IMG/VR virus record: IMGVR_UViG_3300045391_005020
DNA length: 64,000 nt
Direction: 5' to 3' (one strand)
DNA from: a virus
Taxonomy: Duplodnaviria; Caudoviricetes
In this document: positions 2,327 to 63,999 of the stretch, in pieces
Position numbering within the stretch: position 1 is the stretch's first letter
Layout of the letters: each line of letters opens with the position of its first letter
Notes under the pieces: generated by a model
Seen by the model: the letters and a program-made list of their open reading frames with translations, nothing else
What the model was told of the DNA's origin: nothing
Databases searched by the model: none
Made by a program: the position numbers and the translations under genes

Positions 2327-4755
2327 GCCTGACTGCGGGACCAGGCTCCGACCAGGTCCCACATGTTCTGGCTCACGATCCAGTGACCTACGTCGGATCC
2401 GACTAGCATTCCTGCCTGAGCTAGCTGCTTGGTCAGGCGCCCAATGTCCGCCGGCGCCAATACCGGGCTCGCAAATGCGGCCCTGACGTCAGCGTGTTCG
2501 ATCCTGATTCCGTCTTGGGTCTGCCGGATCGGCAAGATGTTCTCGTCGGCGAGTCTGCGGAGTAACCCGAGCGTCTTGGTTCCGATCGTGTGCTCAGACA
2601 GGATCCAGTTTGAATCCAATTGGGCAGCGCAGCTGAGCAGCAGGTGCTGTGGCCGGCTGAGGCTGACCACTGGTCCGACGATTTCGGCGATGCTGGTGAA
2701 GAAGCAGTCTGGTTTTATCAGGTCAGCGGTCGCGATCAGGATCGGGAGCGCCCGAAATACCCACCGGAGTGCCTGGAAGTCGCAGACGGATTCGACCGGG
2801 AGCCTGAGCCACTCGGGGTTCACCGCCAAGAGCTCGAACGAGCGCCGATCCAGCGACAGCATGACGTGCTTCGGCCCCGGATGGCGCATCAGTTCGACCA
2901 ACTTCTCATCCGACCATCGGCCCATAACCGGGAGGGGCCACATGGCTTCATTTTGGACGCGCTCGACCGAGGGATCGACTGAGGCCGACATCGCGAAGGC
3001 TTCGGCGGTGCGTTCCACCACGTGATTTGCCGACTGGACCGCGATGCAGAACGGTTGCTGGCCCGCATGGGTCCTGACCAGGTTGCCCAGCAGGGCCAAA
3101 ACCATCATGCAGAACCCTGGATCCAGGAATGCTTCCCACTCGGCGGGACTCAGGTTCTCCGGGTATGGGATATCGGGGCCTGCGACGCGCGACACCGCGT
3201 GCGAGACCGAATCCGAGTCGACCATGAAGCGCTGGAACCGCAGCACATCGCCTTCCCATCCGAACGGATGATCTGACGAGTAGGTCTTGATCGAGTCCTT
3301 GGAGAATTCGCGCCCGATATCGAGCAACCGAGCTCCCCACTTGGGTCCGTACCGGAACCACCCACCGTGCCTGGTGAGCAATTGCTCGAGCCACTTCACC
3401 GTTGCGGCTCCGCGGATCTTGGCTTTGTCTTCTTGGAACGGCACGACCTTGTCGTCGAACGACACGATGCCGCGCATGATCGAGTGACCCGACTTGGTGT
3501 CGTTGTGAATCTCGTCGATCCGGATCACCGCGTTGCTGACCAGCTTGCCATCCTGGGTCCAGCCGGATTTCGACTCGTCGATGCGGTCGCCATCAAATTC
3601 GATCGAGCGGCTGGTTGACGAATTACCGAAGTAGCGCGTCAGTTCGGCCGCGTCCTGGCCGGTGAAATGCGATTTGACCTGATTCTGCTCGGTGACGGTC
3701 AGACTCAGGTCTGCCGCACGTCGCGAACCTTCGGCGCCAGCACGTAGCAGGTAGGTTCCGATCGCCTGATAGGCCGGAACCGCAAGATTGGTCAGATGCC
3801 GGATCAGCGATTTCGACGTGTCCTTCTCGCGGTAGTCGGTCAGGAGCGAAAACTTCAAATCCCACTCCTGCACGGTGTGGGCGCCGTCATACCGGAGCGC
3901 CCGTTTGAGCCAGTGATGGATCGGCTGGTTATTCGATGATACCGGCAGGAACATAACGCGCTGATTCGCCAGCTGGTGTATCGGCTCTTCGTGACCAACC
4001 GGGATCGCGAACACCGTCATGCTGTTCTGATTGTCGACTGTTTGACGAACCATGAACCGCAAGGCGACTCGCGGGTCGTTGACCATCACGACTTGATCCT
4101 GCCCGATCCGGAGTGCATGTCCGTACGCGAGCGCCGCAGTGTAGCGCTGCAGTTTCACGAACATGTACCCCTGCGGGATCTTCTTGGGGTTCACCAGGTA
4201 GAGACCGACCAGACGGGACTGCTCCCAGACCGGTATCGCGAACGCGTGGTAGTTGCCCAGATCGGCCCGGAGCCGTTTCCGCTCCTCCTTGTCGAGGAAC
4301 AACTCCTCCAGGTCTGCCGCACCAAGGATCGAGTGGTTCCGTGCCAGGAGGTTTCCGTGGATCGCAAGGCTCATGCACCGAAGTTCGGTCAGGATCGCCT
4401 TCGCGGGCAGCGACATCCCTCCCTCAAGGCGCTTCTGGCCTTCCCGCCAGACCTTCAGGCAACGCTGGTTATAGTCCCGCTCCATCTGGTACGTGGACTG
4501 GCCAGCCTGGGTCATCTCAAGCCGCGCATCGATCTGGAGTTCGGCGACCGCCGCCGGCAGCTCCTGGCCGGATTTGCGCGCGTACAGCTCAACCACGTCC
4601 CCGATGAACCCGCACTGCTGGCAAATCAGGGTATCGGATCCCCGAACTTCTAACGCATCAACGGTTTGACACAAAGGGCATTGACACGAGAATGGTAGTA
4701 CATTCCGGTCACGGATTCCGCATTTTGCCAGAGCAAGGCTGAGGTCAATCTTCAT
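2323..4755 (-). CDS. Primase-like protein with N-terminal Zn finger, apparently degenerate TOPRIM and long C-terminal region
   Basis: CPLC...CQQCGFIGDVVELYA...AVAEL resembles the DnaG Zn-binding domain; FAIPVW...LVGL and YG...VVMV resemble the primase core; ATG 4755 (TTG 4767 alternative). Confidence 0.55.
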   Translation of the reverse strand: MKIDLSLALAKCGIRDRNVLPFSCQCPLCQTVDALEVRGSDTLICQQCGFIGDVVELYARKSGQELPAAVAELQIDARLEMTQAGQSTYQMERDYNQRCLKVWREGQKRLEGGMSLPAKAILTELRCMSLAIHGNLLARNHSILGAADLEELFLDKEERKRLRADLGNYHAFAIPVWEQSRLVGLYLVNPKKIPQGYMFVKLQRYTAALAYGHALRIGQDQVVMVNDPRVALRFMVRQTVDNQNSMTVFAIPVGHEEPIHQLANQRVMFLPVSSNNQPIHHWLKRALRYDGAHTVQEWDLKFSLLTDYREKDTSKSLIRHLTNLAVPAYQAIGTYLLRAGAEGSRRAADLSLTVTEQNQVKSHFTGQDAAELTRYFGNSSTSRSIEFDGDRIDESKSGWTQDGKLVSNAVIRIDEIHNDTKSGHSIMRGIVSFDDKVVPFQEDKAKIRGAATVKWLEQLLTRHGGWFRYGPKWGARLLDIGREFSKDSIKTYSSDHPFGWEGDVLRFQRFMVDSDSVSHAVSRVAGPDIPYPENLSPAEWEAFLDPGFCMMVLALLGNLVRTHAGQQPFCIAVQSANHVVERTAEAFAMSASVDPSVERVQNEAMWPLPVMGRWSDEKLVELMRHPGPKHVMLSLDRRSFELLAVNPEWLRLPVESVCDFQALRWVFRALPILIATADLIKPDCFFTSIAEIVGPVVSLSRPQHLLLSCAAQLDSNWILSEHTIGTKTLGLLRRLADENILPIRQTQDGIRIEHADVRAAFASPVLAPADIGRLTKQLAQAGMLVGSDVGHWIVSQNMWDLVGAWSRSQA

Positions 4756-6283
4756 GAACGCGATCAATTATCACAAGATGAGTCGCCTGCTGGCTGTAAC
4801 TGGCCGTCCTGCATATGTTAAGGTGGCCGGCGAGCAAGTCGACCCCGCAACTCCGGTGTATGCCGATCCCATCAAGAAGTTGTATCCCGTCCAGACCAAA
4901 GAAGCTACGTTCCTATCGTTTGTCAACGCTATTGATCAGAATGCTGACTCCCAGCAAATTCAGGAGATCCGCAAGTACGCGGCCTTCTGGAAAATCGAGG
5001 CTGACCTGGACGCCGCTGAGCAGGCCCTGATCGCCGACCGGACCGAGATGAGCCTGTCCGAGCTCCCCGACAGCGACTTTGCCCTGTGTCAGAAGCACGG
5101 CTCCGAAACGATCCGTAAATACGCCGCCGTCGACCCGACCACGACCGTCGAAGCCGCAATTGCGTTCTACGAGAACCGCACCCGCTACCCGCTCGAGTGG
5201 CGCAAGCAGGCCGCCGTGAACCTGCTGGCCCGCGCTGACCAGTTCGCGACACCGCTGCCGGCCTACGTCTCAGAATACCTCCACAAGGCCGCCGGCTACG
5301 CTGTCGCGACCACTGAAGCGATAGACCAGGCCCTCGGGGCCCGGATCGACCTGACGCCGGCGCGCGACCACGAGGCCCTCAACAAGATCGCGGTCGTCCT
5401 GAATAAGATCGCCGAGTCCGAAGAGCTCCGGTACAACACCGAGCTGGTCGCGGAAGTCCTGGGCGCGATGGATGAATACGATCGCGACATCAAACTCGCC
5501 CAGCATTACGAATCCGGCCGCCTTCCGCTCCCGGAAGAGATGCTGGCCATGACCGAAACCAGTCTCCAGAAGTACGCTGGTTGCCAGAACCGCATCGTGC
5601 GCCTCGTGAACGGCCATGAAGTCGACGTCGCCGATTTGTCGGTCGACGCGCTCGACGCGGTCGACGAGAAGCTCGCGGGCATGAGCCTGTCGAAGCTCGC
5701 CGAGGTTCTCCCGACTCTGCCAAAACCGGAAGCCGATCTCCTGATCGAGCTCCTCCCGGCTGCGCAGCACTGGAAGACGGCTGGCGACGAGACCAAGGCG
5801 GTCACTCCGGCCCCGACGCCGAATCCTGCTCCCGCTCCGGCCCCGACGCCGAATCCTGCTCCCGCGCCTGTGAATCCCAGCTTCGGTACTCCGGCCGCCG
5901 CGACCCCGGCACCGGTCACTCCGGCGCCAACCTCGGCCCCGGCGGTTCAGCCCGCCGCCCAGCCCGCGGCGACCCCGGTCGGCAACAATGCCTCGCCGGA
6001 TGAGTCGATCGATGACTACATCAACCGCATCAGCGCCCCCAAGACGGCGCCGGCGCCGACGATGAACAACACGCTCGACAACAGCACCGATATGGACGCC
6101 GACGCCGCGGCATTCGCTGCGAGTCCGGTGAAGAACTTCCAACCGGTCAAGCAGGTGGTCCCCGGCGCAACGCTTCCCAACGGCAACATCAAGGTTCCGC
6201 CCGGCAAGCTGTGGGTCGACACCCCAGAAGGCCGGCGCGCGACCGCTCGCGATCCGAACTTCCATCGCGGTTCGAACAAATAA
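4754..6283 (+). CDS. Hypothetical phage protein, helical K-x-A-rich body with Pro/Ala-rich tail; predicted internal head protein
   Basis: 509-aa ORF with phage-typical codon usage; 14 of 26 Lys in K-x-A context; start may be ATG 4778. Confidence 0.7.
   Translation: MNAINYHKMSRLLAVTGRPAYVKVAGEQVDPATPVYADPIKKLYPVQTKEATFLSFVNAIDQNADSQQIQEIRKYAAFWKIEADLDAAEQALIADRTEMSLSELPDSDFALCQKHGSETIRKYAAVDPTTTVEAAIAFYENRTRYPLEWRKQAAVNLLARADQFATPLPAYVSEYLHKAAGYAVATTEAIDQALGARIDLTPARDHEALNKIAVVLNKIAESEELRYNTELVAEVLGAMDEYDRDIKLAQHYESGRLPLPEEMLAMTETSLQKYAGCQNRIVRLVNGHEVDVADLSVDALDAVDEKLAGMSLSKLAEVLPTLPKPEADLLIELLPAAQHWKTAGDETKAVTPAPTPNPAPAPAPTPNPAPAPVNPSFGTPAAATPAPVTPAPTSAPAVQPAAQPAATPVGNNASPDESIDDYINRISAPKTAPAPTMNNTLDNSTDMDADAAAFAASPVKNFQPVKQVVPGATLPNGNIKVPPGKLWVDTPEGRRATARDPNFHRGSNK
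5805..5865 (+). repeat. 30-bp perfect tandem repeat x2 encoding PAPTPNPAPA
   Basis: ctccggccccgacgccgaatcctgctcccg occurs twice head-to-tail. Confidence 0.9.
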
Positions 6284-25464: not shown

Positions 25465-26291
25465 CAGGTGCCGGATACGGCTTTCCAAAAATCCGGGTTG
25501 TTGGCGTTCAGGGTCATTTTGGCGACCAGGATTTCGAATCGGACCCACTCGGTCCGGAGCGCCACCACGAGCGGATGCGGCAGGTCCTTGAGGAGCTGAT
25601 CATACGCGACCCGGATGGCGCCGCGGTACTGGTCGTCCTCTTTGGTTTTGGCCTCGAACGGTTTGAATATGCGCGGCACGCCGCCTGGAGACTGAAGTGT
25701 CATCAGTGCGGCGGTGAACTGGTAGTCGCGCAAGCGACGCAACCGATCGGCAGCCACGATCTCACTCGCGGCAGGTCCGACCAGACCGTCGCGACGTTCG
25801 TCGCGGTAGGTCTGTTGACCGCACTCTTCTTCCTCGGCCGCGCTGCGAGTCCGGAAGGTGACTTCGATGTTGCCGTCGAATAGTTTGTAGGACTTGCTGA
25901 AGAACGGCGCACCGAGCAAGAGGGCCAGGAACTTCTTCTTGTCGTCGGCCTCGACCGGCTGCTCGGCTTCCTTGGTCGCCCAATCCGGATTGATACCACT
26001 GAGTCCAGCCGCGGATGCCCCGCCGTCGGTCCCGCCTACTTTCTTTGCGTTGTCCTCGGGACGCGGACCTTCGGTTTCGTGGGTGAAGCTGGTTTCGAGC
26101 TTCTTGGCAGTCTTGATGCGCTCGATCACACCTGGAGGCGGAACTGGAACCGAGACCTTTGCGGCTTGCTCAGCCGGCTTCTCATCTGCGGCAGGAACCA
26201 CGCGGTCGCCGACGATCCGGCCGGTGCCGGCGAGTGCGTCGAGTTCATCTTGGGTCAGTTCAGTTACTTTGAGGCCTTGAGGCTGATTCAT
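25464..26291 (-). CDS. Tail assembly chaperone (G-like) with disordered N-terminus
   Basis: Position before tape measure; VTFRTRS..EE motif; ends NPDFW. Confidence 0.65.
   Translation of the reverse strand: MNQPQGLKVTELTQDELDALAGTGRIVGDRVVPAADEKPAEQAAKVSVPVPPPGVIERIKTAKKLETSFTHETEGPRPEDNAKKVGGTDGGASAAGLSGINPDWATKEAEQPVEADDKKKFLALLLGAPFFSKSYKLFDGNIEVTFRTRSAAEEEECGQQTYRDERRDGLVGPAASEIVAADRLRRLRDYQFTAALMTLQSPGGVPRIFKPFEAKTKEDDQYRGAIRVAYDQLLKDLPHPLVVALRTEWVRFEILVAKMTLNANNPDFWKAVSGT
25488..25494 (-). other. Candidate -1 ribosomal frameshift slippery site G GAT TTT
   Basis: GGATTTTTGG near the end of the first chaperone ORF; the -1 frame is open into the next ORF. Confidence 0.5.
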
Positions 26292-53241: not shown

Positions 53242-53391
53242 TTACCTACGCGGAGAGACGGGCTTCTTGTGGAGCCCACTAAGCTTCTTCAGTACCGCGT
53301 CGTCGGCCAGACTGGACTTGCTCTTGCGCTTGGCCGCGGCGGTTTTGACGTGAAGCAGAACGTACAGGGTAGCGAGCGCTGGGTATTCCAT
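53242..53391 (-). CDS. Unannotated 49-aa basic peptide
   Basis: MEYPALATLYVLLHVKTAAAKRKSKSSLADDAVLKKLSGLHKKPVSPRR; fills the gap and stops 3 nt before the next ATG; below the ORF-track cutoff. Confidence 0.55.
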   Translation of the reverse strand: MEYPALATLYVLLHVKTAAAKRKSKSSLADDAVLKKLSGLHKKPVSPRR

Positions 53392-53420
53392 AGAGCCGTC
53401 CACAGATGAGATTACCAACA

Positions 53421-53450
53421 AGAAAGCCCGGGGAAATCCCCGGGCTTTCT
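53421..53450. terminator. Intrinsic terminator after the major capsid gene
   Basis: Perfect 13-bp inverted repeat agaaagcccgggg-aaat-ccccgggctttct. Confidence 0.85.
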
Positions 53451-53473
53451 CTAGTGCAGTCCGTTACGGACTA

Positions 53474-54409
53474 TCAGCTCGTTGCGATGCGGACGCGGGC
53501 GACAGCGGCAGGGTTGCCGATCGTGGCGCCGCGCTCACAGTACGCGTAGAACTCCAGGTTGAACGCCTTCTTGTCGACGTACATCGTGGTGTCTTCGAGC
53601 ACGTAGCTCTTGCCGAGGAACTCGGGGCTGGCGAACAACCAGAACTCCGACTCACCGACCAGCTCGTGCTTGTTGGTGATGACCCAGTTGACGCCCAGCA
53701 GTTTCTTCTGCTGGAAGCCGTCGACGAACATCGACTCGCTGAGGTCGCCGCCGGCCGTGTCGCGGCCGAACTTGGCAACATCTTCGATCGTGATGTTGTT
53801 GCAGAGGATCGTGACCGCTTCGAGGTGCGCGAAGGTCCGCTTCAGGATCTTCTTCATCTCGAAGAGCGAGGAACGGGTGATGCCGTTCGCGTCGACGATC
53901 TTCTTGTTCTGGATGATGCCCGTCTCAGGGACGGTCGAGCCTTCGGAGCCGACGATGCTCTGGCACGCGGCCAGCATCTTGCGGTCGAACTCGAAATCCA
54001 TGTCGAGGATCGCGTTGTCCGAGATCACCTGGCGGATGTCCATTCCGTACGTGCGGAGTTCGGACATGTCCTTGGTGAATTTCGGGGTGACGATGCGATC
54101 GAAGTACACCGGGTAGCGGTCGCCGCGGAAGTAGTACTGGATCGGCTGCTGGCCGAGCGGGATCGTGATGGCGGCCGGCGAATTCGGTTCGCGTTCGACC
54201 AGCTTCACGTTCTTGTCGGTGTTGAGCTGCGGGGTGAGTTCGTCATCACCGATCTTCACCGCGGGCATGATCTTCTCGAAGAAGCTGCTTTCGCGGATGC
54301 GGATGCGGGTGAAATCCGTCACCATATCGGCGGCTTCTTTGATCTGCCCGGCTTCGAGCATACCATAAAAAGCGCGGTTTGACTGTTGTGCGCTGACTTT
54401 AGTGGTCAT
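53474..54409 (-). CDS. Major capsid protein (HK97 fold)
   Basis: 311 aa after protease-scaffold-decoration genes, followed by a strong terminator; RESSF..KI.P N-arm, E-loop-like EREP, C-terminal G.TIGN..AV. Confidence 0.82.
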   Translation of the reverse strand: MTTKVSAQQSNRAFYGMLEAGQIKEAADMVTDFTRIRIRESSFFEKIMPAVKIGDDELTPQLNTDKNVKLVEREPNSPAAITIPLGQQPIQYYFRGDRYPVYFDRIVTPKFTKDMSELRTYGMDIRQVISDNAILDMDFEFDRKMLAACQSIVGSEGSTVPETGIIQNKKIVDANGITRSSLFEMKKILKRTFAHLEAVTILCNNITIEDVAKFGRDTAGGDLSESMFVDGFQQKKLLGVNWVITNKHELVGESEFWLFASPEFLGKSYVLEDTTMYVDKKAFNLEFYAYCERGATIGNPAAVARVRIATS

Positions 54410-54439
54410 GACTATCTGTTTCTTTTCTGGTATGTTGGT

Positions 54440-54982
54440 TTAGGCGACAGGAACCGTGGTGCCGGCGACGTATGCCGGGTAGAACGCCAAGGTCGCGTAG
54501 CCGTCGGGGCCAGTGTACTTGCCGCGCGGGCTGACGTAGCCGACGATGACGTCGGTTGCGCCGGCCAAGCAGAGCTTGCCGCGGTCCGCGTCGGCGGTCG
54601 CAGCGTTGCTGAGGCAGGTCAGAGGAGCATCCGGAACCAGGCCAGCGTCGTCGACGAACTCGGTCGAGCTCAGTTCGGCGGCGGCCTTCCAGCTGATGCA
54701 GCCGAAGCGCGGTTCGCCGGCGTACGGCATGCCGCGGTCGCGGGTCACATCAGGATAGTTGTTGAGGTCAGTACCGGACCACGCGTACAGCGGGGTGCGG
54801 CCGACGTCGAGACCTGGTTCGAGCTTGCCGCCCGAGGTGATCGACATCACGCGGCCGGCCACGGCTGCTGCGACGGCGAGGGGGTCGCTGTCCAGGATAC
54901 CAGTGTGGTCGACGATGGAGTTGCGGTCGCCCTTCAGCACTTCGAGCTTGTGGGCGCCCATTGAGGTTTGGATACCAGTCAT
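54440..54982 (-). CDS. Putative capsid decoration/cement protein
   Basis: 180 aa immediately upstream of MCP; E..(S/T)TEF...PL......G.L......VG.V pattern. Confidence 0.6.
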   Translation of the reverse strand: MTGIQTSMGAHKLEVLKGDRNSIVDHTGILDSDPLAVAAAVAGRVMSITSGGKLEPGLDVGRTPLYAWSGTDLNNYPDVTRDRGMPYAGEPRFGCISWKAAAELSSTEFVDDAGLVPDAPLTCLSNAATADADRGKLCLAGATDVIVGYVSPRGKYTGPDGYATLAFYPAYVAGTTVPVA

Positions 54983-55022
54983 TTGATGATTCCTACTTGG
55001 GACTTCTTTTTGGGGTTATGGA

Positions 55023-55466
55023 TTACCGGGCGCCAGGCAGACGATTCAGGGCGGAAACCGTGTGGCGATCCCACACGTCGTCTGCCGTCTCTGGTTTGGT
55101 CTCGTTGATCACAACGGTGCCGACCTTGGGGGCCGAATCGATGTAATCCGCGACTTTGGTGAGCGCGTCGAGAGCCTTCTCATGGCTCAGGACATTGGCC
55201 GCGAACTGGTCGCGACGCTCAGGGGAGGAGAGCAGGCCGCGATCGAACAGCTTGTCCGCGGCCGTCTTGGCCAGCGGGGCGATCTTGGCTGCCGCTTCTT
55301 GGGCTGCCTGATCGCGCTTCGAGCCGGCGTCTTTCGACGAGCTCAGCTCAGCTGCGAGCTTGGTGTTCTCTTCCGTTTTGGTTGTGAGGGCTGACTCGAG
55401 CTCGGCGATTTTGGTCGCCTGGGCTTCGATGGTGTCAGCAGCCTGCTTGATCAGTTTGGCGCTCAT
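55023..55466 (-). CDS. Small coiled-coil scaffold-like protein
   Basis: 147 aa helical; 7 of 14 Lys in K-x-A context. Confidence 0.65.
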   Translation of the reverse strand: MSAKLIKQAADTIEAQATKIAELESALTTKTEENTKLAAELSSSKDAGSKRDQAAQEAAAKIAPLAKTAADKLFDRGLLSSPERRDQFAANVLSHEKALDALTKVADYIDSAPKVGTVVINETKPETADDVWDRHTVSALNRLPGAR

Positions 55467-55474
55467 GGGGTCCC

Positions 55475-56986
55475 TTATTTCGCAGCCGCGGTTTCGAGTT
55501 CGGCGACCTTGCTCAGGATCTGCCGGCGGACTTCGATCCGCGCAGCCGCCATCTTGGCAGCGGCGGGGTCACTGTGGTGATGAGCCTTCTGGGCCATGAG
55601 GGCCTTGAGGTCATCCATGGTCAGGCCCATCTCGTGCAGGACTTGCTCGAGGGCCTGTTGCTCTTCCGGGCTCTTGGGGGCGAGAACCGACGAGTCGTTC
55701 GTCATGGCGTCAGCCGGGTGAGCGGCAGGGGCGTCATGCTTCGGAGCATCGTGCGCGGGAGCATCATGAGGGGGCAACGCTTCGGCTTTCTTCTCGCCCT
55801 TGTCGGCCGGAAGATCCTTCTTGGCGTTGTTGTCGACTTCAGCTTTGGTACCGACCGCTTCGCCTTCGGCAGGCTTCAGCTCGGCCTTCTGGACCTTCGG
55901 GGCTTCGATGCCGCCTTCAGCGTCTTTGGTACCGTCTTCGACGTTGTCGCCGATCATGCCTTCCGCGATCTTGACCGCGTAGGCGTAACCAGCATCGACC
56001 GCCTCCTTGTGGAGGGTGGCGATCTTTTGGAGATAGAGGGGATGCTCGGGGCCGATGTTGGCCGCGGCCATCTTGGCTTCGAGGCCTGGATCTTCGACCA
56101 TCTCGCCGCCGGCAGCAGCCGGATCAGCGGCAGGAGCCGGAGCGCCCATCGGGGCCGGGGCACCCATCGGAGCAGGAGCCGCGCCGCCAGCTGCAGCGGC
56201 CGGATCGCCGGCAGGAGCAGCAGCGCCGCCCGCGCCGTGCAGTTCCTGCATGGCCTGGGTCAGCTCTTGTTCGCTGATCGCGCCGCTCTGGACGGCTTCG
56301 AGCAGAATCTTTTCAGCATCTTCCTCGGAGAGAGCGCCGGATTGAATGGCCTGCATGAGGCCATCGGCCGACTGGTCGGCAACAGCGGGATCGGCCATTC
56401 CGGCCGCAACCTTGTTGGTCGCGCGGGCCTGCTTGACCAGGAATTTCTCCAGGCCGCTCAGCTCGCGGGTCTCTTCGGAAGCTTTCTTATTGAGGATCGC
56501 AGCCAGCTTGGCTTCCGCTTTCGCGGTGTCGGGCTTCGCCGGCTCTTCAGCTTTTTTTGCGGAGGCTTCCATTTCGGAAGCGACCTTGCGCAGTTCTTCG
56601 ACCAGGGCCGACGCGGTCTTCTTGTCGTCGCCCTTGATCCCGCCTTCGGGGCCGTTGGCGGCTTCGTGTTTCACTTCGAGCTCAGCGCCCTCGGTGCCCT
56701 TCTGGCCGTCAGTCGAAACCGCGGTCGCGCCGTCGGTCGACATTTCGAGCGAAGCGCCGGACGGGTTGGTCTTGGCGCCGCCGTCGACCATCGCCTTGGT
56801 GCCCTTCGCCGCTTCAGACTTGTTCGACGCCATCTGGGCGCCGGTCTCGACCGCTTTGGTACCATCTTCGGCGCCGTCGCCGGGAGAGGCGGTTTTGACC
56901 GCAGCTTCAGCGGTCTTCTTGTGATCATCGCCAACCTTGTTGATCAACGTGTTCAGGCGCTCGAGGATTTGCTTGCGGTGCGACAT
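55475..56986 (-). CDS. Low-complexity scaffold/internal core protein
   Basis: Ala/Glu/Lys/Pro-rich, between protease and MCP; ATG 56986 has an AGGA SD; many K-x-A motifs. Confidence 0.7.
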   Translation of the reverse strand: MSHRKQILERLNTLINKVGDDHKKTAEAAVKTASPGDGAEDGTKAVETGAQMASNKSEAAKGTKAMVDGGAKTNPSGASLEMSTDGATAVSTDGQKGTEGAELEVKHEAANGPEGGIKGDDKKTASALVEELRKVASEMEASAKKAEEPAKPDTAKAEAKLAAILNKKASEETRELSGLEKFLVKQARATNKVAAGMADPAVADQSADGLMQAIQSGALSEEDAEKILLEAVQSGAISEQELTQAMQELHGAGGAAAPAGDPAAAAGGAAPAPMGAPAPMGAPAPAADPAAAGGEMVEDPGLEAKMAAANIGPEHPLYLQKIATLHKEAVDAGYAYAVKIAEGMIGDNVEDGTKDAEGGIEAPKVQKAELKPAEGEAVGTKAEVDNNAKKDLPADKGEKKAEALPPHDAPAHDAPKHDAPAAHPADAMTNDSSVLAPKSPEEQQALEQVLHEMGLTMDDLKALMAQKAHHHSDPAAAKMAAARIEVRRQILSKVAELETAAAK

Positions 56987-57015
56987 TGGGGTGGGTTCCT
57001 GATGATCTGGTGTAA

Positions 57016-57044
57016 AAATTACAGGGGTCAGTTTAGACACGCAA
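57016..57044 (-). promoter_or_regulatory. Putative promoter TTGCGT-N17-TAATTT for the scaffold-capsid operon
   Basis: Spacer GTC-N6-GACCC shared with 61836-61864. Confidence 0.55.
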
Positions 57045-58373
57045 GTCGTTACTTGCGGCAACAGCGGTTAGGACGGCTTCGTCCGCTCGGTTGCTTGGAT
57101 ATGCAGCGAAAGCCAGCTTGTAATGCAGATACAATCGCGAGAGCCCGAGATGCTCGGCGCGATCGATTGCGATCCCGGCCGACTTGACTGAATCGGCTGG
57201 TTTCATGATCGTGATGCGAACAATTCGAGCCCCGACCGGTTGCGCCTTCATCGACGCCTTCTCGTTCAGCTCGGACGCAGTATCTTCACCGAAGTCCAGA
57301 TTTGACACGTCGTTGTGTCCATCCAGTGAGGACATCTCGGGATCCTGTTCTTCCAGGAGTCCACTGAAGCCGCCCTGCACATCGGGTTCGCCGCACATGC
57401 AGGCCAACTTGGATTGGCCGACGATGATCTCGGTGAAATCCTGGAACGACAGCATGTGACCAGCGCGGTGAAGGGTGGTCAGCACCGCTTCAACTCCGTG
57501 CAAATCTGCTGCCTGCTTGATCTGTTTGACCGCGCGATCCGAAAGCTTCATCGGACCCGCGCCCGACACGGCCTTGCCGTGACCCGCGACGCGCTTCTCA
57601 ATTTCAGCCAACCGGACGAGGGTCGCCTTCTTGACCTGATCGTCGTCGAGCCCGTACGCCTCTGCCAATTCGTGGCCGCCAATCACGCCATTTTGTGACG
57701 CGACCTTGGCCAGCGCGTACCCGATCCTGTCGGCCGGCTTGTAGACCGTGCTGATGTCGAAGTACTTCGGGTTCGGATTCTGCATGTAGATCTGGCGACC
57801 GTCCGCCAGCACTTCACCCAGCTTGGTCTTGATGTGATCGCAGTGGTGGCGCGCGGTCGGGGCCTTATGGCCGCAATAGCTGCAAACGTCGTAGTCCTGC
57901 TTGGAACCCATCGAAACCGGAATGTCTTCACCCCGCGCGAACGCGTCGAGTTCTTCTGCGTACTTCGTGTTGTCGAGTGCGATCAGAAGTTCGATGCGGC
58001 GCATGTCCGGATTGTGGGCAGTCGCCAGCACTTCGCCGGTTTTCAGGATCGGCGAGTGGTTCTTGTGGTTCTTGAAAACGTGACCGTTTTCTTTGAATCC
58101 AGTATGGGCCGTGACATTGTCTTTTTCGCTGAAGCCGTCGCAGTTGCGGTTCGGGCCGTACGCTTCTTCGTCGCCGACCGCGAGCACGTGCAGAACCGAG
58201 TGGCCCTTCACGCCGCCTTCGTCGGCGATCTTCTGCAGAGTCTTGCTGAATAGTCCATCGGCCGCTCGCTTCTCGAGCCAGCCCGCGTCGACGCCGCGGC
58301 GATGCAGCGGAACCAACGCGACGTTAAGATCGTTGAAGTCGTACGAGTCGGTGAGGATCAGTTTGCGAATCAT
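57033..58373 (-). CDS. Putative prohead (capsid maturation) protease
   Basis: N.N.D.F, VF.NH.N (His), VSMG (Ser), CSYCG...C.H Zn site, FDIS.V..PAD; upstream of scaffold and MCP. Confidence 0.72.
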   Translation of the reverse strand: MIRKLILTDSYDFNDLNVALVPLHRRGVDAGWLEKRAADGLFSKTLQKIADEGGVKGHSVLHVLAVGDEEAYGPNRNCDGFSEKDNVTAHTGFKENGHVFKNHKNHSPILKTGEVLATAHNPDMRRIELLIALDNTKYAEELDAFARGEDIPVSMGSKQDYDVCSYCGHKAPTARHHCDHIKTKLGEVLADGRQIYMQNPNPKYFDISTVYKPADRIGYALAKVASQNGVIGGHELAEAYGLDDDQVKKATLVRLAEIEKRVAGHGKAVSGAGPMKLSDRAVKQIKQAADLHGVEAVLTTLHRAGHMLSFQDFTEIIVGQSKLACMCGEPDVQGGFSGLLEEQDPEMSSLDGHNDVSNLDFGEDTASELNEKASMKAQPVGARIVRITIMKPADSVKSAGIAIDRAEHLGLSRLYLHYKLAFAAYPSNRADEAVLTAVAASNDLRV

Positions 58374-59320
58374 GGGCGAGCGAGCTGTTCGGGCGGGAAG
58401 AATTTGTTGGCGGTGTACCCGAGCGCCGACCCGAGACCGAGCGATAGTCCCACACGGCCCTTGCTGGCAATCGGGTCGCGTGCAGCGCGAATGTCCGAGA
58501 AGCCCTTCTGGAGACGCGGGAGGGTTACATCAGAGCCGGTGCGCTTCTGCAGTTCTGCCTGAACTGCCGGGACGGTGTAGTCCCAGCCGCCGATGCGCTG
58601 CTTCGCGCCTGGGTTCTTGTTCGCCCAATCCAATGCCTTCAGCATCTGGTTGGTGTTCGGATTCTTGTAAGCCAGGTTCTTGGCCTGCGTGTACATCCGA
58701 TAGATAGCAGTCAGCGGGTCGAGACGCGCATTGCCGGTCATCGGATTTTCAGGCGTGCTGCCTGGCGCGTTGAGGTGATCCATGATCAACCTGCTGAGAT
58801 TCTCTTTACCACCGAGCGCGGTGTTGAGCTGACGGGCTGGCGCGACTGCAGGCGATTCGCCCGACGCCGGCGCGGTTGCGGTTGCGGCCTGCAGGGCGAC
58901 ATCATTCATGCCCTGCATGTTTCCGGTCATCTTCCGTGCCGAGTCGAAGAAATTCCGGACTAGCGGAAGTTTTGAAAGAAACGGAGCTGCGGTACCGGCG
59001 GAGAATCCGCCGAGACCAGCGAGATTTACCGGGCCATTTCTGGCCGCTTCGAGATTCGCTTCAGGAGTGCCCGGGGCCGGAGGCGGAGTAGTCTTGGGCA
59101 CGATGCCGGTAGCTTCCATCGCGGGACGCCAGTGCTTCCATCCGTAGTATCCGGCTGCACCAACGCCGCCCAGAATCCCGAGGGCCGCGAGCCACTTCTT
59201 CCAGTGCTCCTTCTTGGCCTGTTGGACTTCGGGATCGTTGTCGTTGTCGGTCGATTCGACGTCTTCGTCGAACATATCCGGCTGGATCACGTCTTCAGCG
59301 GCGAGCTTCTCGAAGGTCAC
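58370..59320 (-). CDS. Hypothetical protein with Gly-rich hydrophobic segments
   Basis: Acidic N-terminus, WLAALGILGGVGAAGYYGW and GLSLGLGSALGY segments. Confidence 0.65.
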   Translation of the reverse strand: MTFEKLAAEDVIQPDMFDEDVESTDNDNDPEVQQAKKEHWKKWLAALGILGGVGAAGYYGWKHWRPAMEATGIVPKTTPPPAPGTPEANLEAARNGPVNLAGLGGFSAGTAAPFLSKLPLVRNFFDSARKMTGNMQGMNDVALQAATATAPASGESPAVAPARQLNTALGGKENLSRLIMDHLNAPGSTPENPMTGNARLDPLTAIYRMYTQAKNLAYKNPNTNQMLKALDWANKNPGAKQRIGGWDYTVPAVQAELQKRTGSDVTLPRLQKGFSDIRAARDPIASKGRVGLSLGLGSALGYTANKFFPPEQLARP

Positions 59321-59321
59321 G

Positions 59322-60779
59322 TTAGACGTCTTTCTTGCCGCGGGCGCGAGCCAGCGTGTCGAACGGGAGTGAACCTTCGGAGGCGAGCGACTGACGCATC
59401 AGGCTCGACAGCTCAGCGGTGCTGAGATTCGGGTTCACGCCTTTGACCTTGTTGTATGCGCTGACGACATCCTGGATCGGATGTTCACGGATGTACGGGT
59501 CGGCTAGCAGTTCCTCGATATTGCCGCGCGAGTCGGCGTTCGAGATCTGCTGACGAATGCTAACCGGCAGCGCGGTTTCCTCGGTGAGGGGTTCCGGTTT
59601 ATCCTTGCTCGGATCAGCGACCGAACCGGCGGCGCCGCCGTACAGATCGATCTGATCGTTCGGATCCATGCCGGCGCCAGTCATTTTGTCCGGCAGGTTC
59701 GCGATATCGCCCGACAGAGCCTTGACGCCTTCCGCGGCGCTGCCCAACCCGAGACCGATCGTGACGGCAGTCTTGAGATATTCGTCGGCGTTTTCGAGAC
59801 CGGCGCGCAGCAGGTCGCGCGCAGCCAGCTTCTCGCCCGCGATCAGGTACGCGGCTTCAACGCTGTGCATCGCGTCGACTAGTGACTGTTCGCGCGGCGA
59901 CACATCATTGAGGCCGGCGAGCTTCTCGCCCGAGGCGCGCTTGTGGCCCAGACGATCGAGGCTGCCCGCTTCGAACAGCATCGCGATCGTTTCGTCGCTG
60001 ACGCCCGAGAGGATCGCGAGCTTTTCGATCCGATCGAAACGCGGGGAGTCGGTGCGGCGGAATTCATCCGCGAGCTTGAAGAGGCCGTCGAGTGCAATGT
60101 CGTAGGCCTTGGTGTAGGCCAGCGACGCTTCGTCGGCCGCGTGCTTGATCGCGGTGAGCTGATGAAACGGATTGCCGGTCGTGCGGCCTTCGCCCGAAAT
60201 GTCGACTTTGACTTGGTGATGATCGCCCACCGTGACCGCAACCTTGGTGGTCTTGTGGGTCAGCGGATCCGGTCCGCCGAGCGCGTTCTGGAATGCGGCG
60301 GCGTGGTCTTCCTTGTTGCCGGCCAGGTACGAACCCTTGTCGTGATTGGATTCCAGAGCGGCCTTACGACGACGCTTCAGCTTCGGAGCGTTGGTGACCG
60401 GCATGTCGAGCGCGGCAGCCAGCTTGGGCTCCATCGCGTCGGTCTTCTCGTTCTTCTCGGCGTCCTTCTCGTCCTTCTTGGCCGCGGCGTCTGAGGCCGG
60501 GTCGGCGTCGTAGAGGCGCTGGTTCACCACTTCGGCGTTGGTGATCGGGAAGGCTTTGTCCTTCTCGTTGGCGTCCGAGTTGGCCAGCACCGAGAGGGTC
60601 TTGGAGTTGTTGATCGCGTGGCTGACCCGGAGGACTTCGTTCGAGGTCAGTTCGCCGTCGCGGGCGACTTTCAGGAGGGCGGCGTTGGGGTCGATCCCGA
60701 TATTCATCAGACCGATCGCCTGCTCGGCGCACTTGATCAGGTGCTGGTGCCGATCATCGGACATCAATTGGAGTGACAT
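59322..60779 (-). CDS. Hypothetical head-module protein, K-x-A rich
   Basis: 485 aa helical; about 12 K-x-A motifs. Confidence 0.7.
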   Translation of the reverse strand: MSLQLMSDDRHQHLIKCAEQAIGLMNIGIDPNAALLKVARDGELTSNEVLRVSHAINNSKTLSVLANSDANEKDKAFPITNAEVVNQRLYDADPASDAAAKKDEKDAEKNEKTDAMEPKLAAALDMPVTNAPKLKRRRKAALESNHDKGSYLAGNKEDHAAAFQNALGGPDPLTHKTTKVAVTVGDHHQVKVDISGEGRTTGNPFHQLTAIKHAADEASLAYTKAYDIALDGLFKLADEFRRTDSPRFDRIEKLAILSGVSDETIAMLFEAGSLDRLGHKRASGEKLAGLNDVSPREQSLVDAMHSVEAAYLIAGEKLAARDLLRAGLENADEYLKTAVTIGLGLGSAAEGVKALSGDIANLPDKMTGAGMDPNDQIDLYGGAAGSVADPSKDKPEPLTEETALPVSIRQQISNADSRGNIEELLADPYIREHPIQDVVSAYNKVKGVNPNLSTAELSSLMRQSLASEGSLPFDTLARARGKKDV

Positions 60780-61584
60780 CTTTTACCTCTGGTGTAGCCA
60801 AGTAGTCCGCGGCCCGCGGTTCGATCGCAGGTAGTGTTAAATTACGTACATCGGTTGGGTCGGCAACTTTGAACGGAACGCTTCGGACGAATTCGGCCAG
60901 GACAGCCTGGCTGGATTCGTCGGCGCCGATGTTCTTGACGGTCTCTTTAATCTGGCGGTCAACGTCGATGAAGACCCGGAGGACCTCGATATCGACCTCT
61001 CCGCCATGGCCTGCCAGGCACATGGAGCTGATTAGGGACTGCTTCGCGACAATGTCCTTGATCCGCTCCGCCATCTTTTCCCGCAGAGCGGGATCCTGGT
61101 TGCCGGTGGCGTAAGCCTCGAAAATCTGGGGACCCGCCATCCAGGCCAGGCGATGGACCACGCCGGCCCTATCTCGCAGGTTCATAGGGCCGTACAGGCC
61201 GCCGTGGAATAGCTGGCCGACGATCCAGGCCGGAGCCTCAAGGCGGGGCCGGACGTCGAAAAAGAGATCGTGGTAGGCTTGGACGTCCGCCGGCGCGCAC
61301 GGCACCTTGGCGGCGAAATCCTCGTTCTTGGCGCCGGCGAGCAGCATGCCCTCAACGAACAACCGCTCTTCGAAGCGGTTCGGCTGGATGAATAGCTCGT
61401 AGGCTGCGGCCGTCGGGGTGTCGGGCCATGGTTCGCCGCGGTCGACCGCGCGCTTGAACCGGTAGGCGTCTACAGTGGCAGCGTCCGCGCCGCGGAGATG
61501 GTAAACCGCCTGGGAGTCAGTGTATTCAGCGACCTCGGACGCTTTGGCCCAACGCCAATCGAGACGGCCGGGGGCTAGGGACAC
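60754..61584 (-). CDS. Hypothetical phage protein
   Basis: 276 aa; DWRW and Y..LFFDV..RL motifs. Confidence 0.7.
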   Translation of the reverse strand: MSLAPGRLDWRWAKASEVAEYTDSQAVYHLRGADAATVDAYRFKRAVDRGEPWPDTPTAAAYELFIQPNRFEERLFVEGMLLAGAKNEDFAAKVPCAPADVQAYHDLFFDVRPRLEAPAWIVGQLFHGGLYGPMNLRDRAGVVHRLAWMAGPQIFEAYATGNQDPALREKMAERIKDIVAKQSLISSMCLAGHGGEVDIEVLRVFIDVDRQIKETVKNIGADESSQAVLAEFVRSVPFKVADPTDVRNLTLPAIEPRAADYLATPEVKDVTPIDVR

Positions 61585-61587
61585 GGA

Positions 61588-61791
61588 TTACTTCGCGGGA
61601 GTCGCAGCCGCGCGTTCGGTTTCCTGAATTTTCAGGGCGTGCGCGTGGAACTGAGCGAACTGCTCTTCATTCAAGCCCATGTCCTGGGCGGCTTTGATGA
61701 AGCCCAGCTCGTAGGCGTCATTGCGCTCGCGAGCGTCCTGCTCGGCGATCTTGGTCAACGCTTCTTGGTGGGCCTGCTTGGTGAACGACAT
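61588..61791 (-). CDS. Small head-module protein
   Basis: 67 aa with GAGGA SD; KQA, KIA, KAA motifs. Confidence 0.7.
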   Translation of the reverse strand: MSFTKQAHQEALTKIAEQDARERNDAYELGFIKAAQDMGLNEEQFAQFHAHALKIQETERAAATPAK

Positions 61792-61835
61792 ACAGATATC
61801 CTCGAGGTGGAAGCCGTTAGCTACGTAGGACTTTC

Positions 61836-61864
61836 ACTTTAGGGTCCAGATTGACCCCCAGCAA
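61836..61864 (-). promoter_or_regulatory. Putative promoter TTGCTG-N17-TAAAGT
   Basis: Spacer contains the GGGTC-N6-GACCC dyad; near-copy at 36030-36057. Confidence 0.65.
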
Positions 61865-61878
61865 GCCTATTGTAACGA

Positions 61879-63999
61879 TCAGCCCTGCATGGTGGCGTTG
61901 AGGCCGAGTCCGTAGAACTCGGGGTCGCCGGCCAGTGAGCGCTTCTTCATGAACAACACGAGCTCACCCAGGGACTCGAACGAGGCCTTGAGGTCGTCGG
62001 TGAATTCAACCAGGTCTTCCTTGCCGTACCGTTCGGTGAACTCGTCGTAGTGCCAGTGCAGGAGGAACAGGAGGCGGCCCAGGCGGTCCATGCCCGAAAC
62101 GATCGTCGGGAGGAATCGCTCGACCATGTCGGTCGGGTTATGGGTCTTGATCAGCGAGCTCAGGACCGAGGCGTCGAACACTTCCTTCTGGCCGGTCTGA
62201 CTGGCGCGCTGGACGGCTTGGCTGGTCGACTCGGTGTCGGTGTCGCCGTCATCAGAGCCGCCGAACGGCGAGTGGTACTGGTAGAACGCGCGGTTGTCTT
62301 CGCTGGGCTCACGCTCGACCCCGTAGGACGGGAACTTGGTCGTGTGATGGTTCGACATCAACCCGCCCTCGGTCTCGTCGGTGACTTCCGGGAACGGCAG
62401 AAGATTGGCGGCGTACTTGACTCGGTACTCGGTCGGGGCGTCCGCTTCCTTGATCAGGATCTTGGCGTCGTGTGCGGACAAGCCGTGCCGGCGCATCAAG
62501 TAGCTGAGGGCACCGACTTTGGTATATGAGTCAGAACCGTCGAGGTCCTTAATCCCGATCTCGTCGTTCATCTTCCACACTTTGATCGGCGACGCGGTCT
62601 TCTCGAGCTCGGTCAGGATCGTGTTGTGGTCGCCGAAGTCGGAGTGGTGCAGCTGCGATTCCGAGATCGGAGTCTTGTACGAGTAATCTTTCTCAGTGAA
62701 CCGGTTCAGCACGATGGCGCGGAAGCGTCGCTCGTTGACGACCAACTTCTCGGCCAGGTACCGGATCTGACCAGAGCCAGCTTCGGTGACGACAATTTCG
62801 CGCACTCGTTGGTCCGGAGCGCCGTAACGCCACGGCGCCGGGCCATTCAGGACCGACCATGGATGATTGCGTCCGCACCAGTCGCGGGTGATGTAGTACG
62901 ATCCGCGGACCTTGAGGGTCTTGATCTCGTTCACGCCGTCGACCGAGCTGTCGATCTCGAATCCGAGCGTGGAATCGCCGGTCTGATTGCAGAACACCAC
63001 GCAGTCGCCCGGACGGACTTTATCGGGCGAAACCGATTCATCGTCCAGGAGCTTGCGGAAATCCGCGCCGTCGTGTTGGCGCAGCGTGTAGATATGGCGA
63101 GTCGAGACCATGCCGTGACGGCCGCTCGACGGCTCGTACACCAGCATCTGGTCAGCGTCTTCCGCTTTGGTGCCGCTGATGCGGAGAATCAGGCATTCCG
63201 CGATCGAACCGTCGGCCATCAGGACATCGTAGAGTCCGCCCTGGGTTGGGTTCTGGAGAACTTGCGGGACGGTCGTGCGGTACACGATCGACTTGTTCAT
63301 CTCGGGACGCTTATCGACGACGGCGGTTCCGCCCGTGATCAGCTCTTCCTTCTGGGCATCGGTCAAATCCTTCGCACCATCCTGAGCGACCGAGCTGATG
63401 ATCGTGATGTCGTCTTCCTTCTTCTCGGCCGTCTTGGTCGGCACGTAGAAATCGACCAGGTTGTAGAACTGTTCGACGTACGAGGCGAGCTTGGGAAATT
63501 TCTGCAGGTCGCCGATGAAGCCGCGCGCGACTTCGGGACCGAACGATGCGATCGCATCCGGGAGCGACGGCAGATCCGGCTCCATCGTCATGTCCTGCAT
63601 CGAGTGGATCGCTTCACCGCTCTTCTGGAGATTGAGTCCGCCCTGTCCGCCGCCCGGAGGCAGCTGGCGCAGCTTCGAATAGTTCGGCTGACGAACACCC
63701 CGTTCTTGCTTGGACTTGGTGTCGACTTCGCCGAGTTGATTCGGACGACGATTGATGATCTGGTTGACCCAGTCTTCGGTGAGCGGGACGAACAGGTCGG
63801 AGTCGACGCTGTACAGGGCATCGAGGCCCTTGATCTCGCCGTTCATGAAGAACACGGGAGCGTAGTGCCACCCGTCGCCGATCTCGAACCCGAAGATACC
63901 GACCGCTTTGGAACCGTCGTCGTTCGACTTCACCAGCTGGAAGCCGACCAGATAGTCCAGGAGTGCCGGCGACTTATCGCGCAGACGGGCATTGGCCAA
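61879..63999 (-). CDS. Large hypothetical head-module protein, 5'-truncated by the window edge
   Basis: Open frame >706 aa running off the window; globular N-terminal part and helical C-terminus. Confidence 0.75.
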   Translation of the reverse strand: MANARLRDKSPALLDYLVGFQLVKSNDDGSKAVGIFGFEIGDGWHYAPVFFMNGEIKGLDALYSVDSDLFVPLTEDWVNQIINRRPNQLGEVDTKSKQERGVRQPNYSKLRQLPPGGGQGGLNLQKSGEAIHSMQDMTMEPDLPSLPDAIASFGPEVARGFIGDLQKFPKLASYVEQFYNLVDFYVPTKTAEKKEDDITIISSVAQDGAKDLTDAQKEELITGGTAVVDKRPEMNKSIVYRTTVPQVLQNPTQGGLYDVLMADGSIAECLILRISGTKAEDADQMLVYEPSSGRHGMVSTRHIYTLRQHDGADFRKLLDDESVSPDKVRPGDCVVFCNQTGDSTLGFEIDSSVDGVNEIKTLKVRGSYYITRDWCGRNHPWSVLNGPAPWRYGAPDQRVREIVVTEAGSGQIRYLAEKLVVNERRFRAIVLNRFTEKDYSYKTPISESQLHHSDFGDHNTILTELEKTASPIKVWKMNDEIGIKDLDGSDSYTKVGALSYLMRRHGLSAHDAKILIKEADAPTEYRVKYAANLLPFPEVTDETEGGLMSNHHTTKFPSYGVEREPSEDNRAFYQYHSPFGGSDDGDTDTESTSQAVQRASQTGQKEVFDASVLSSLIKTHNPTDMVERFLPTIVSGMDRLGRLLFLLHWHYDEFTERYGKEDLVEFTDDLKASFESLGELVLFMKKRSLAGDPEFYGLGLNATMQG

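Follow-up and report, generated by a model that had tools for sequence, protein, structure and literature searches.

The tailed-virus record IMGVR_UViG_3300045391_005020 (Duplodnaviria; Caudoviricetes) was analyzed over a stretch of 64,000 nucleotides, referred to here as the window, in which the proteins of the head-morphogenesis module share a short motif consisting of a lysine followed two residues later by an alanine (K-x-A). Judged from its pattern of occurrence, the motif is probably what the prohead serine protease encoded in the same module recognizes and cuts, Lys being at P3 and Ala at P1, directly before the scissile bond. A first-pass annotation had already proposed that K-x-A marks the head proteins and is read by this protease. 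The head-specific motif is real. It is enriched in head proteins, occurs at the chance level in the rest of the genome, and is conserved across a large clade of phages.

Window positions 25-64000 are the reverse strand of one 148,649-bp contig with 60% GC, the genes of which are almost all co-directional and correspond to the minus strand of the window. The head module lies entirely on this strand and comprises, in order, a putative portal, p67, p276, p485, p316, the protease, a scaffold-like protein, p147, p180 and the major capsid protein (MCP), with the protease gene located between the putative portal and the scaffold and MCP genes (Table 1). The order from putative portal to MCP is syntenic with small differences in nine related loci (L001-L009). 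Pfam gave no match for any head-module protein (for the protease, none at E <= 0.01, the families S21, S77 and S78 included). In PHROGs the protease matches PHROG 18299, 'head maturation protease' (E = 3.9e-10), and the only other match in the module, p147 to a RecT-like family (E = 9e-4), is borderline and probably spurious.

In total, 204 open reading frames (ORFs) were called on the whole contig, and the K-x-A count of each was compared with 2,000 shuffles of the same protein, which corrects for composition. The five lowest p-values belong to four adjacent head genes and one distant ORF. The head genes are those of the protease (11 K-x-A, 3.5 expected, p = 0.001), p485 (13, 4.8 expected, p = 0.002), the scaffold (18, 10.1 expected, p = 0.004) and p147 (7, 2.7 expected, p = 0.0075). 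The distant one is ORF 4754-6283 (14, 4.3 expected), with the lowest p-value in the genome (p = 0.0005). With these five and p67 taken out, the remaining genome has 171 K-x-A and 170 are expected. The head set as a whole carries 78 against 35.5 expected, although it also contains genes without enrichment, namely p276 (3 against 1.6) and p316 and p180 with one each. In eight of ten head proteins the first K-x-A comes within the N-terminal 50 residues, compared with 31 of 194 others (Fisher p = 3e-5). The hand counts of the first-pass annotation, including those for p147, p67 and the KEA at MCP residues 24-26, turned out to be right to within one or two. It had given about 17 for the scaffold, about 12 for p485 and about 11 for the protease. 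Its negative control, a sheath-like tail protein identified as such by that annotation and by its N-terminal sequence only, with no match in Pfam, is likewise as described, with 3 of its 20 lysines in K-x-A and 2.1 expected.

A blind scan over 2,000 combinations of residue, gap (0-4) and residue places K-x-A at rank 1 in the head module (56 against 26.3, p = 3e-7). The same scan on T4 gp67, gp68, gp21 and gp22 ranks IxE first, LxE second and KxA 51st. It thus recovers the experimentally established gp21 motif, which shows that the method is sound. Pooled over this phage and nine relatives, the gap-1 pair is the sole enriched spacing (2.68x), while KA (0.88x), KxxA (1.04x), KxxxA (1.24x), KxxxxA (0.93x) and the inverted AxK (0.85x) are flat or depleted. 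Arg, Ser and Gly are not accepted in place of the motif residues (RxA 0.78x, KxS 0.66x, KxG 0.66x).

These controls bear on the view that the excess is a functionless by-product of composition, of local Ala/Lys-rich helices or of a signal at the DNA level. Such an origin could be suspected from the scaffold-like proteins, which are Lys-rich with 19-21% Ala, and from the head proteins of T4, in which K-x-A is also mildly in excess (1.5x). We nevertheless give it hardly any credence. The flat sister spacings (0.79-1.24x for other K..A spacings in the same proteins) control for local co-occurrence in Ala/Lys-rich segments and for helical periodicity, so that neither explains the excess. Composition and helical periodicity, on which the first-pass annotation had made its proposal depend, were both rejected by the shuffles, by these spacings and by the lack of an i+3/i+4/i+7 periodicity. 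An Ala-rich, helical tail protein of 763 residues has only 3 K-x-A where 5.1 are expected. The motif is at rank 1 in phages of different hosts and base composition. A DNA-level cause was rejected as well: the codons of the motif Lys and Ala are used like elsewhere, so the signal resides in the protein and not in the DNA.

A motif profile was built from 365 instances in 41 proteins. Relative to Lys at position 0, Leu (2.9x) and Phe (2.3x) are preferred at -2, Val (2.6x), Thr (1.9x), Leu (1.7x) and Ile (1.6x) at +1, where Asp is depleted, Ser (2.6x), Glu (2.1x) and Ala (1.9x) at +3, and Glu, Asp and Ala at +4. Outside -2 to +4 the information is almost nil, which leaves a compact footprint of seven residues. 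The full short linear motif around the K-x-A core reads [L/F/M]-x-K-[V/T/L/I]-A-[S/A/G/E]. The tripeptide described by the first-pass annotation thus stands as the core, but the signal is wider than it had stated, extending to Leu/Phe at -2, a beta-branched or hydrophobic middle residue, and Ser/Ala/Glu after the Ala. The motif is found in unrelated proteins, including the putative portal, p67, p485, the protease, the scaffold, p147, the N terminus of the MCP and the product of ORF 4754-6283.

Cultured relatives were identified by tblastn with the protease. They are the Vibrio phages D69, D181 and D148 (35% identity), Salmonella phage Arash (gp222, 35%), Bacillus phage G (gp19, 31%) and cluster C mycobacteriophages such as Catera (gp94, 30%). 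In addition, 173 metagenomic homologues were found on contigs of up to 235 kb, and an exhaustive search gave 2,814 clusters at E <= 1e-3 and 563 at E <= 1e-30 (clusters at 50% identity). A search of viral_contigs with the protease alone found no related loci. Among the 2,000 pair types, K-x-A is at rank 1 in Arash (39 against 17.5) and in Vibrio D69 (43 against 16.1). It is the top pair in phage G gp15-21 (17 against 8.0) and at rank 8 in Catera gp93-95. In four metagenomic loci of 54-58% GC, the orthologues of p485, protease, scaffold and p147 are each enriched (p <= about 0.02, most <= 0.005), whereas tail and other genes are not. The head modules of seven metagenomic relatives are syntenic.

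Conservation of the single sites was examined in nine orthologue groups. Of the orthologue cells, 47% preserve a motif Lys against 33% for other Lys, and 56% a motif Ala against 33% for other Ala. As a pair, K-x-A survives in 40% of cells, more than any other of the 81 frequent pair types (median 16%), and for K..A at other spacings the figure is 9-18%. The counts carry no correction for the tree, and they point in the same direction in eight of nine protein families. Conservation of the motif in alignments, which the first-pass annotation had put forward as a check, is therefore found, and the retention of the pair and of its Lys and Ala suggests that K-x-A is under purifying selection.

The first-pass annotation had described the product of 57033-58373 as a His/Ser prohead protease with a Zn site, and we likewise assign it as the prohead protease. 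An N-terminal segment (residues 1-37) precedes the catalytic domain (about 56-215), and the C-terminal domain (233-446) is helical. An AlphaFold2 (AF2) model based on 90 homologues has a predicted local distance difference test score (pLDDT) of 85.5, and its only internal segment below 50 is a disordered linker at residues 221-231. With VIA-align, residues 56-228 match the assemblins of varicella-zoster virus (VZV, 1vzv, Z 11.3), pseudorabies virus (PrV, 4v08, Z 10.9) and herpes simplex virus 2 (HSV-2, 1at3, Z 9.4), as well as T4 gp21 (5jbl, Z 10.5, 138 residues, root-mean-square deviation 2.9 Å). Foldseek of the model against the PDB gave only weak rows (E >= 0.09; none at E <= 0.001), and the fold assignment is thus based on VIA-align. 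On this model, the catalytic domain has the fold of herpesvirus assemblin and T4 gp21. At the sequence level, the protease has no match in the PDB, and hhalign of its profile against T4 gp21 gave a probability of 0.2%, that is, no relation. Ser154 in the VSMGS context and His103 are near-universal and both invariant in the 90 homologues, and they are accompanied by the cluster of Cys164, Cys167 and Cys178. Candidates for the third residue of the triad are His62 (84 of 98 representatives) and Asp162, Asp206 and Asp215 (92-95 of 98). Many homologues are 800-880 residues long, with their match to the query split in two near Ser154-Asp162 (P0257-P0259 and others), and one of 634 residues (P0054) carries the intein splicing domain PF14890; inteins seem to be inserted at or near the catalytic serine in this family.

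Two of the eleven K-x-A of the protease are near-invariant, and they flank the catalytic domain. Just upstream, K35-R-A37 (in L-E-K-R-A-A) is a candidate for N-terminal autoprocessing. K35 and A37 are both kept in 88 of 90 homologues with a middle residue varying between R, H, T and A (the pair is present in 85 of 98 in the wider set). Position -2 is L, M or F, position +3 is S, G or A, and the pLDDT is about 62. Between the catalytic and the C-terminal domain, K223-V-A225 (in L-A-K-V-A-S) is a candidate release site. Here, too, 88 of 90 homologues have both residues while the one between them varies, and the site lies within the disordered linker. All 98 representatives have a K-x-A within 8 columns of this position, with L, F, I or M at -2 in 95 of them and S, A or G at +3. 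The herpesvirus release site is located immediately behind the protease domain (PMC4498786), C-terminal self-cleavage is described for the proteases of phiKZ and SPN3US (PMC5694885), and T4 gp21 is activated by N-terminal self-cleavage (PMC9958956). The candidate sites flanking the catalytic domain mirror the herpesvirus release site and the C-terminal autocleavage in phiKZ and SPN3US, which supports the view that the motif is cut. A complex prediction of protease residues 40-222 with MCP residues 1-60 scored 0.00, gives no verdict and was not used either way.

Two positions of the scissile bond can be considered. Lys is the more strongly fixed position of the motif, and in HK97 a protease of the same broad fold cleaves the capsid protein behind a Lys. 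A cut after Lys, which would put Lys at P1 and Ala at P2' in a trypsin-like or HK97-type manner, thus has some appeal. It would, however, need a strong P2' preference together with an almost free P1' (V/T/L/I/R/H/E/Q), which is unusual, and Arg does not substitute for Lys, unlike in typical basic-P1 proteases. Furthermore, the characterised relatives cited here all read P3 and P1 (PMC10052503, PMC4498786), and we consider a cut after Lys quite improbable. The T4 gp21 code, L/I-x-E, is read via P3 and P1, and the SPN3US protease cuts at A-x-E with Ser preferred at P1' (PMC10052503). In PrV, the sites YLQA-T and VQA-S are cut after Ala (PMC4498786). Given the P3-x-P1 reading in the fold relatives and the Ser/Ala/Gly that follows the Ala in our motif, we take cleavage after Ala as the likeliest. 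A Glu-P1 code of the T4 or phiKZ type was not found in the head set, where [LI]xE occurs 46 times with 33.8 expected (1.36x) and [SAG]xE 74 times with 70.9 expected (1.04x). This agrees with the first-pass annotation, which had suggested a specificity different from the Glu-ending codes.

If K-x-A is cut in this way, the following course of maturation can be envisaged. The protease would be built into the prohead, and its catalytic domain would be freed by self-cuts at K35-x-A37 and K223-x-A225. About 26 residues would be removed from the MCP, and short N-terminal tags would be trimmed off some head proteins. The scaffold-like proteins would be chopped to peptides of about 20-30 residues able to exit the shell before DNA packaging; the scaffold with 18 sites, p485 with 13, p147 with 7 and the product of ORF 4754-6283 with 14 would be broken into small peptides.

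Outside the protease, a predicted site lies in the MCP. The profile of this protein matches the Arash MCP gp226 (4e-121) and phage G gp27, an HK97-fold MCP of solved structure, while its sequence gave only chance matches in the PDB. At the candidate site K24-E-A26, Lys is kept in 115 of 116 homologues and Ala in 116 of 116, with a variable residue between them (E70/Q29/R6/K5/A3/S2). The site falls in the first 40 residues, a segment of low confidence, and closely follows Gly21, where a helix is broken. In the public annotation, the MCP gene is called from Met17 (295 aa). The 16 residues upstream of Met17 are conserved in more than 100 homologues with Asn11 invariant, which makes the reading of 311 residues likelier than that of 295.

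The scaffold-like protein, whose likely true start is the ATG at 56986 (503 aa), gave no match in Pfam or PHROGs. Its orthologues in L003, L004, L005 and L006 have 12-15 K-x-A (all p <= 0.005). Orthologues of p485 in L003-L006 have 10-13 (p <= 0.002), and its counterparts are Arash gp220 (10 against 3.0 expected) and a Vibrio D69 protein (11 against 4.0). In the orthologues of p147, with 6-10 K-x-A, the positions of the sites shift and their number is kept.

N-terminal tags occur on two unrelated proteins, MSFTKQA on p67 and MTFEKLA on p316. In p67, motif Lys is kept in 83% of orthologue cells, other Lys in 38%. In p316, the tag is followed by an acidic stretch and then by a Gly/Ala-rich hydrophobic segment. 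No orthologue of p316 is detectable by BLAST, but the gene at its position opens with a K-x-A-A/R tag in six of nine relatives (TFAKQAA, NWAKEAA, HYAKTAA, LAKRAA, RVKVAR and, in Vibrio D69, MDKVAS). The tag is missing from L004 and L009, and the Arash protein has its motif (LLKAAG) further from the N terminus. p316 and its positional counterparts have a common architecture, with the K-x-A tag in most, and no detectable sequence similarity. We regard p316 as a head protein that evolves fast and is possibly membrane-associated or internal.

Outside the head module, the motif singles out ORF 4754-6283 as an additional predicted substrate of 509 residues. Thirteen of its K-x-A lie in the first 345 residues, which are followed by a Pro/Ala-rich low-complexity tail. 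The protein has the internal repeats IRKYAA and LNKIA, each present twice. All 15 homologues (34-64% identity, all metagenomic) have 8-16 K-x-A (p <= 0.002 each), with most site positions conserved in the alignment. No family match was found, and no homologue is detectable in Arash, Vibrio D69 or phage G.

The putative portal, assigned from its size, position and similarity to Arash gp218 only and not confirmed against a known portal, is enriched in three of the four metagenomic loci (7 against 2.6, 8 against 2.4 and 9 against 3.0); in the fourth no portal orthologue was identified. Motif Lys and Ala of this protein are kept in 76% of orthologue cells and other Lys and Ala in 33-34%. Its five K-x-A are far from the N terminus, the first at residue 185, and may lie in folded parts, which is one of several observations that speak against cleavage at K-x-A as the general explanation. 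In the protease itself, the conserved KPADR (212-216) and HYKLAF (417-422, with Phe after the motif Ala) are in confidently folded parts. As K-x-A in folded regions are unlikely to be cleaved, not every K-x-A can be a site. In line with the proposal of the first-pass annotation that the motif predicts substrates, it picks ORF 4754-6283 as a further candidate. The signal in Catera is weak outside gp94, and the MCP of phage G is without any K-x-A. The excess seen in seven T4 head proteins (25 against 16.7) is not significant, and generic effects in Ala/Lys-rich helical proteins may account for a small share of the signal. Finally, cleavage itself is inferred, and part of the excess may be a structural or docking signal.

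In its full form, this last idea holds that K-x-A is a docking or capsid-targeting signal. All these proteins would be recruited into the prohead by binding to one partner, for instance the shell on its inner face, the scaffold core or the protease at a non-catalytic surface, and cleavage, if any, would occur elsewhere. It would account for the presence of the motif in unrelated head proteins, often near the N termini as for the capsid-targeting sequence of T4 (PMC9958956), for the many conserved sites inside predicted helices or folded domains, and for the conserved sites of the portal distant from its N terminus. In T4, however, the targeting sequence and the cleavage motif coincide, so that docking does not exclude cleavage. 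The narrow footprint from -2 to +4, the P3-x-P1 register and the Ala followed by Ser/Ala/Gly match the substrate rules of the fold (PMC4498786, PMC10052503). Furthermore, conservation is highest at the two sites on either side of the protease's own catalytic domain, of which one is in a disordered linker. We therefore regard docking without cleavage as unlikely and keep cleavage after Ala as the preferred interpretation.

Prohead proteases of this fold are grouped in clan SH of MEROPS. T4 gp21 belongs to family S77, herpesvirus assemblin pUL26 to S21, and phiKZ gp175 and SPN3US gp245 to S80. All characterised relatives of T4 gp21 known to us cut after Glu. The T4 system resembles the one described here in the fold of the protease, in its neighbourhood of portal, small core proteins, protease, scaffold and MCP, and in a P3-x-P1 pair motif spread over scaffold, core proteins, protease and the N terminus of the MCP. 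It differs in that Glu and Leu/Ile take the places of the predicted P1 Ala and P3 Lys, and no relation is detectable at the sequence level (by Pfam or hhalign). Our protease is twice as long; its catalytic domain contains the three-Cys cluster as an insertion, and a further 220 residues form its helical C-terminal domain. The triad of T4 gp21 is His-Ser-Asp (PMC5694885), whereas here Ser154 and His103 are joined by candidates only for the third residue.

The herpesvirus assemblins, which have R- and M-sites, are the best structural matches (VZV and PrV). They share with our protease a release site, here a candidate, directly after the catalytic domain and then a long C-terminal extension. Two conserved His (His62 and His103) accompany Ser154, which makes a Ser-His-His triad a candidate, and the motif appears compatible with Ala at P1 and a small P1', given the residues favoured after Ala. 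The herpesvirus sites, in contrast, have a hydrophobic P3 (Val/Leu) and no Lys requirement. Nor does the C-terminal domain of our protease duplicate the scaffold encoded downstream, to which it shows no similarity (best BLASTP E = 4), and thus there is no nested in-frame scaffold.

With phiKZ gp175 and SPN3US gp245, the likeness is that one tripeptide code marks many head proteins. Moreover, phiKZ and SPN3US are giant phages with virion RNA polymerases, and the relatives of our phage encode a multisubunit RNA polymerase beside the head module. However, these proteases cut after Glu (S/A/G-x-E and A-x-E), and [SAG]xE is not enriched here; no sequence similarity between them and our protease was found.

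Cleavage codes of head proteases are, to our knowledge, experimentally known for only a few phages. While a prohead-protease cleavage code is of an already known kind, the predicted Lys-x-Ala specificity is new, and if correct it would be a new specificity for this fold. It would also bring a herpesvirus-like P1/P1' specificity to tailed phages and add to the known phage-herpesvirus kinship of the fold. There is perhaps an even chance that the homologues form a large, mostly uncultured family of head proteases (about 2,800 clusters) with a Cys cluster in the catalytic domain that cuts after Ala in a Lys-x-Ala context. If so, sequence alone would show which proteins of uncultured large phages are packaged in the head and processed, ORF 4754-6283 being an example. 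For annotation, the motif flags proteins of the prohead interior and likely maturation sites where head genes are mostly 'hypothetical'. Cultured relatives, namely Salmonella phage Arash, Vibrio phage D69, Bacillus phage G and Bxz1-type mycobacteriophages, make the idea directly testable.

In the literature we found no report of K-x-A or Ala-P1 specificity for any phage protease. The only virion proteome from a relative is that of Arash, for which particles from a single sucrose gradient yielded 116 of the 272 proteins; processing was not analysed there, so that it weighs neither way (PMC10585845). Its supplement contains annotation only, with a 'coverage' column that looks unreliable (100% from 2 peptides) (PMC10585845). 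The papers on phage G that were searched gave no cleavage data, and the structure 6wkk covers gp27 residues 1-280 and is silent on processing. A search for capsid processing in Bxz1 gave nothing useful.

Table 1. Features discussed in the text and their positions in the window
Feature	Position	Strand	Remarks
Putative portal, 721 aa	61879..63999	-	start just past window end; 5 K-x-A, 2.4 expected
p67, small protein	61588..61791	-	N terminus MSFTKQA; 3 K-x-A among 5 Lys
p276	60754-61584	-	3 K-x-A, 1.6 expected
p485, head-module protein without known family	59322..60779	-	13 K-x-A
p316	58370..59320	-	N-terminal tag MTFEKLA-A; sole K-x-A at residues 5-7
Prohead protease, 446 aa	57033..58373	-	PHROG 18299, AF2 model, VIA-align
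Candidate N-terminal autoprocessing site K35-R-A37	58263..58271	-	just upstream of catalytic domain
Catalytic domain, aa 56-215	57729..58208	-	coordinates checked by translation
His103	58065-58067	-	kept in 97/98 representatives
Ser154 in PVSMGS	57912-57914	-	kept in 98/98 representatives
Cys164-x2-Cys167-x10-Cys178 cluster	57840-57884	-	each Cys kept in 96-98/98 representatives
Candidate release site K223-V-A225	57699..57707	-	between catalytic and C-terminal domains
Scaffold-like protein, Ala/Lys/Glu-rich	55475..57061	-	role from position and composition only
p147, small helical head protein	55023..55466	-	7 K-x-A among 14 Lys
p180	54440-54982	-	1 K-x-A
MCP, 311 aa, HK97-like	53474..54409	-	profile matches Arash gp226, phage G gp27
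Candidate maturation site MCP K24-E-A26	54332-54340	-	conserved in homologues
ORF 4754-6283, 509 aa, additional predicted substrate	4754..6283	+	outside head module
Sheath-like tail protein, negative control	30096-32390	-	3 K-x-A among 20 Lys, 2.1 expected
Tail/baseplate genes	17030-18637, 26288-28639, 43297-47322	-	none K-x-A-enriched

A second contig, of 214,858 bp, carries a protease and an ORF 4754-6283 identical to those described here; the 148,649-bp genome may thus be incomplete, and the phage may be a jumbo phage of more than 200 kb. In six of seven metagenomic relatives (L003, L004, L006, L007, L008 and L009), the head module is directly preceded, upstream of the portal gene, by genes for a multisubunit RNA polymerase (Pfam Rpb2_6, Rpb1_2 and Rpb1_5), and in one relative a weak LAGLIDADG match is located inside the beta-prime gene. 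In Arash, a multisubunit RNA polymerase gene is found two genes upstream of the portal homologue. The region of the present genome that matches the RNA polymerase genes of the relatives is just beyond the window. On the other side of the module, several relatives carry Endonuclease VII-type genes (PF02945, with helix-turn-helix domains) just 3' of the MCP gene (L004 16672-17451, L007 14904-15698 and L008 14630-16537), and none are present in the window; they look like mobile homing-endonuclease insertions. Among the tail and baseplate genes of the window are a Baseplate_J match (E = 6e-16), a weak match to DUF2345 (VgrG-like spike) and a protein of 1,341 residues with head-decoration and tail-fibre PHROG matches.

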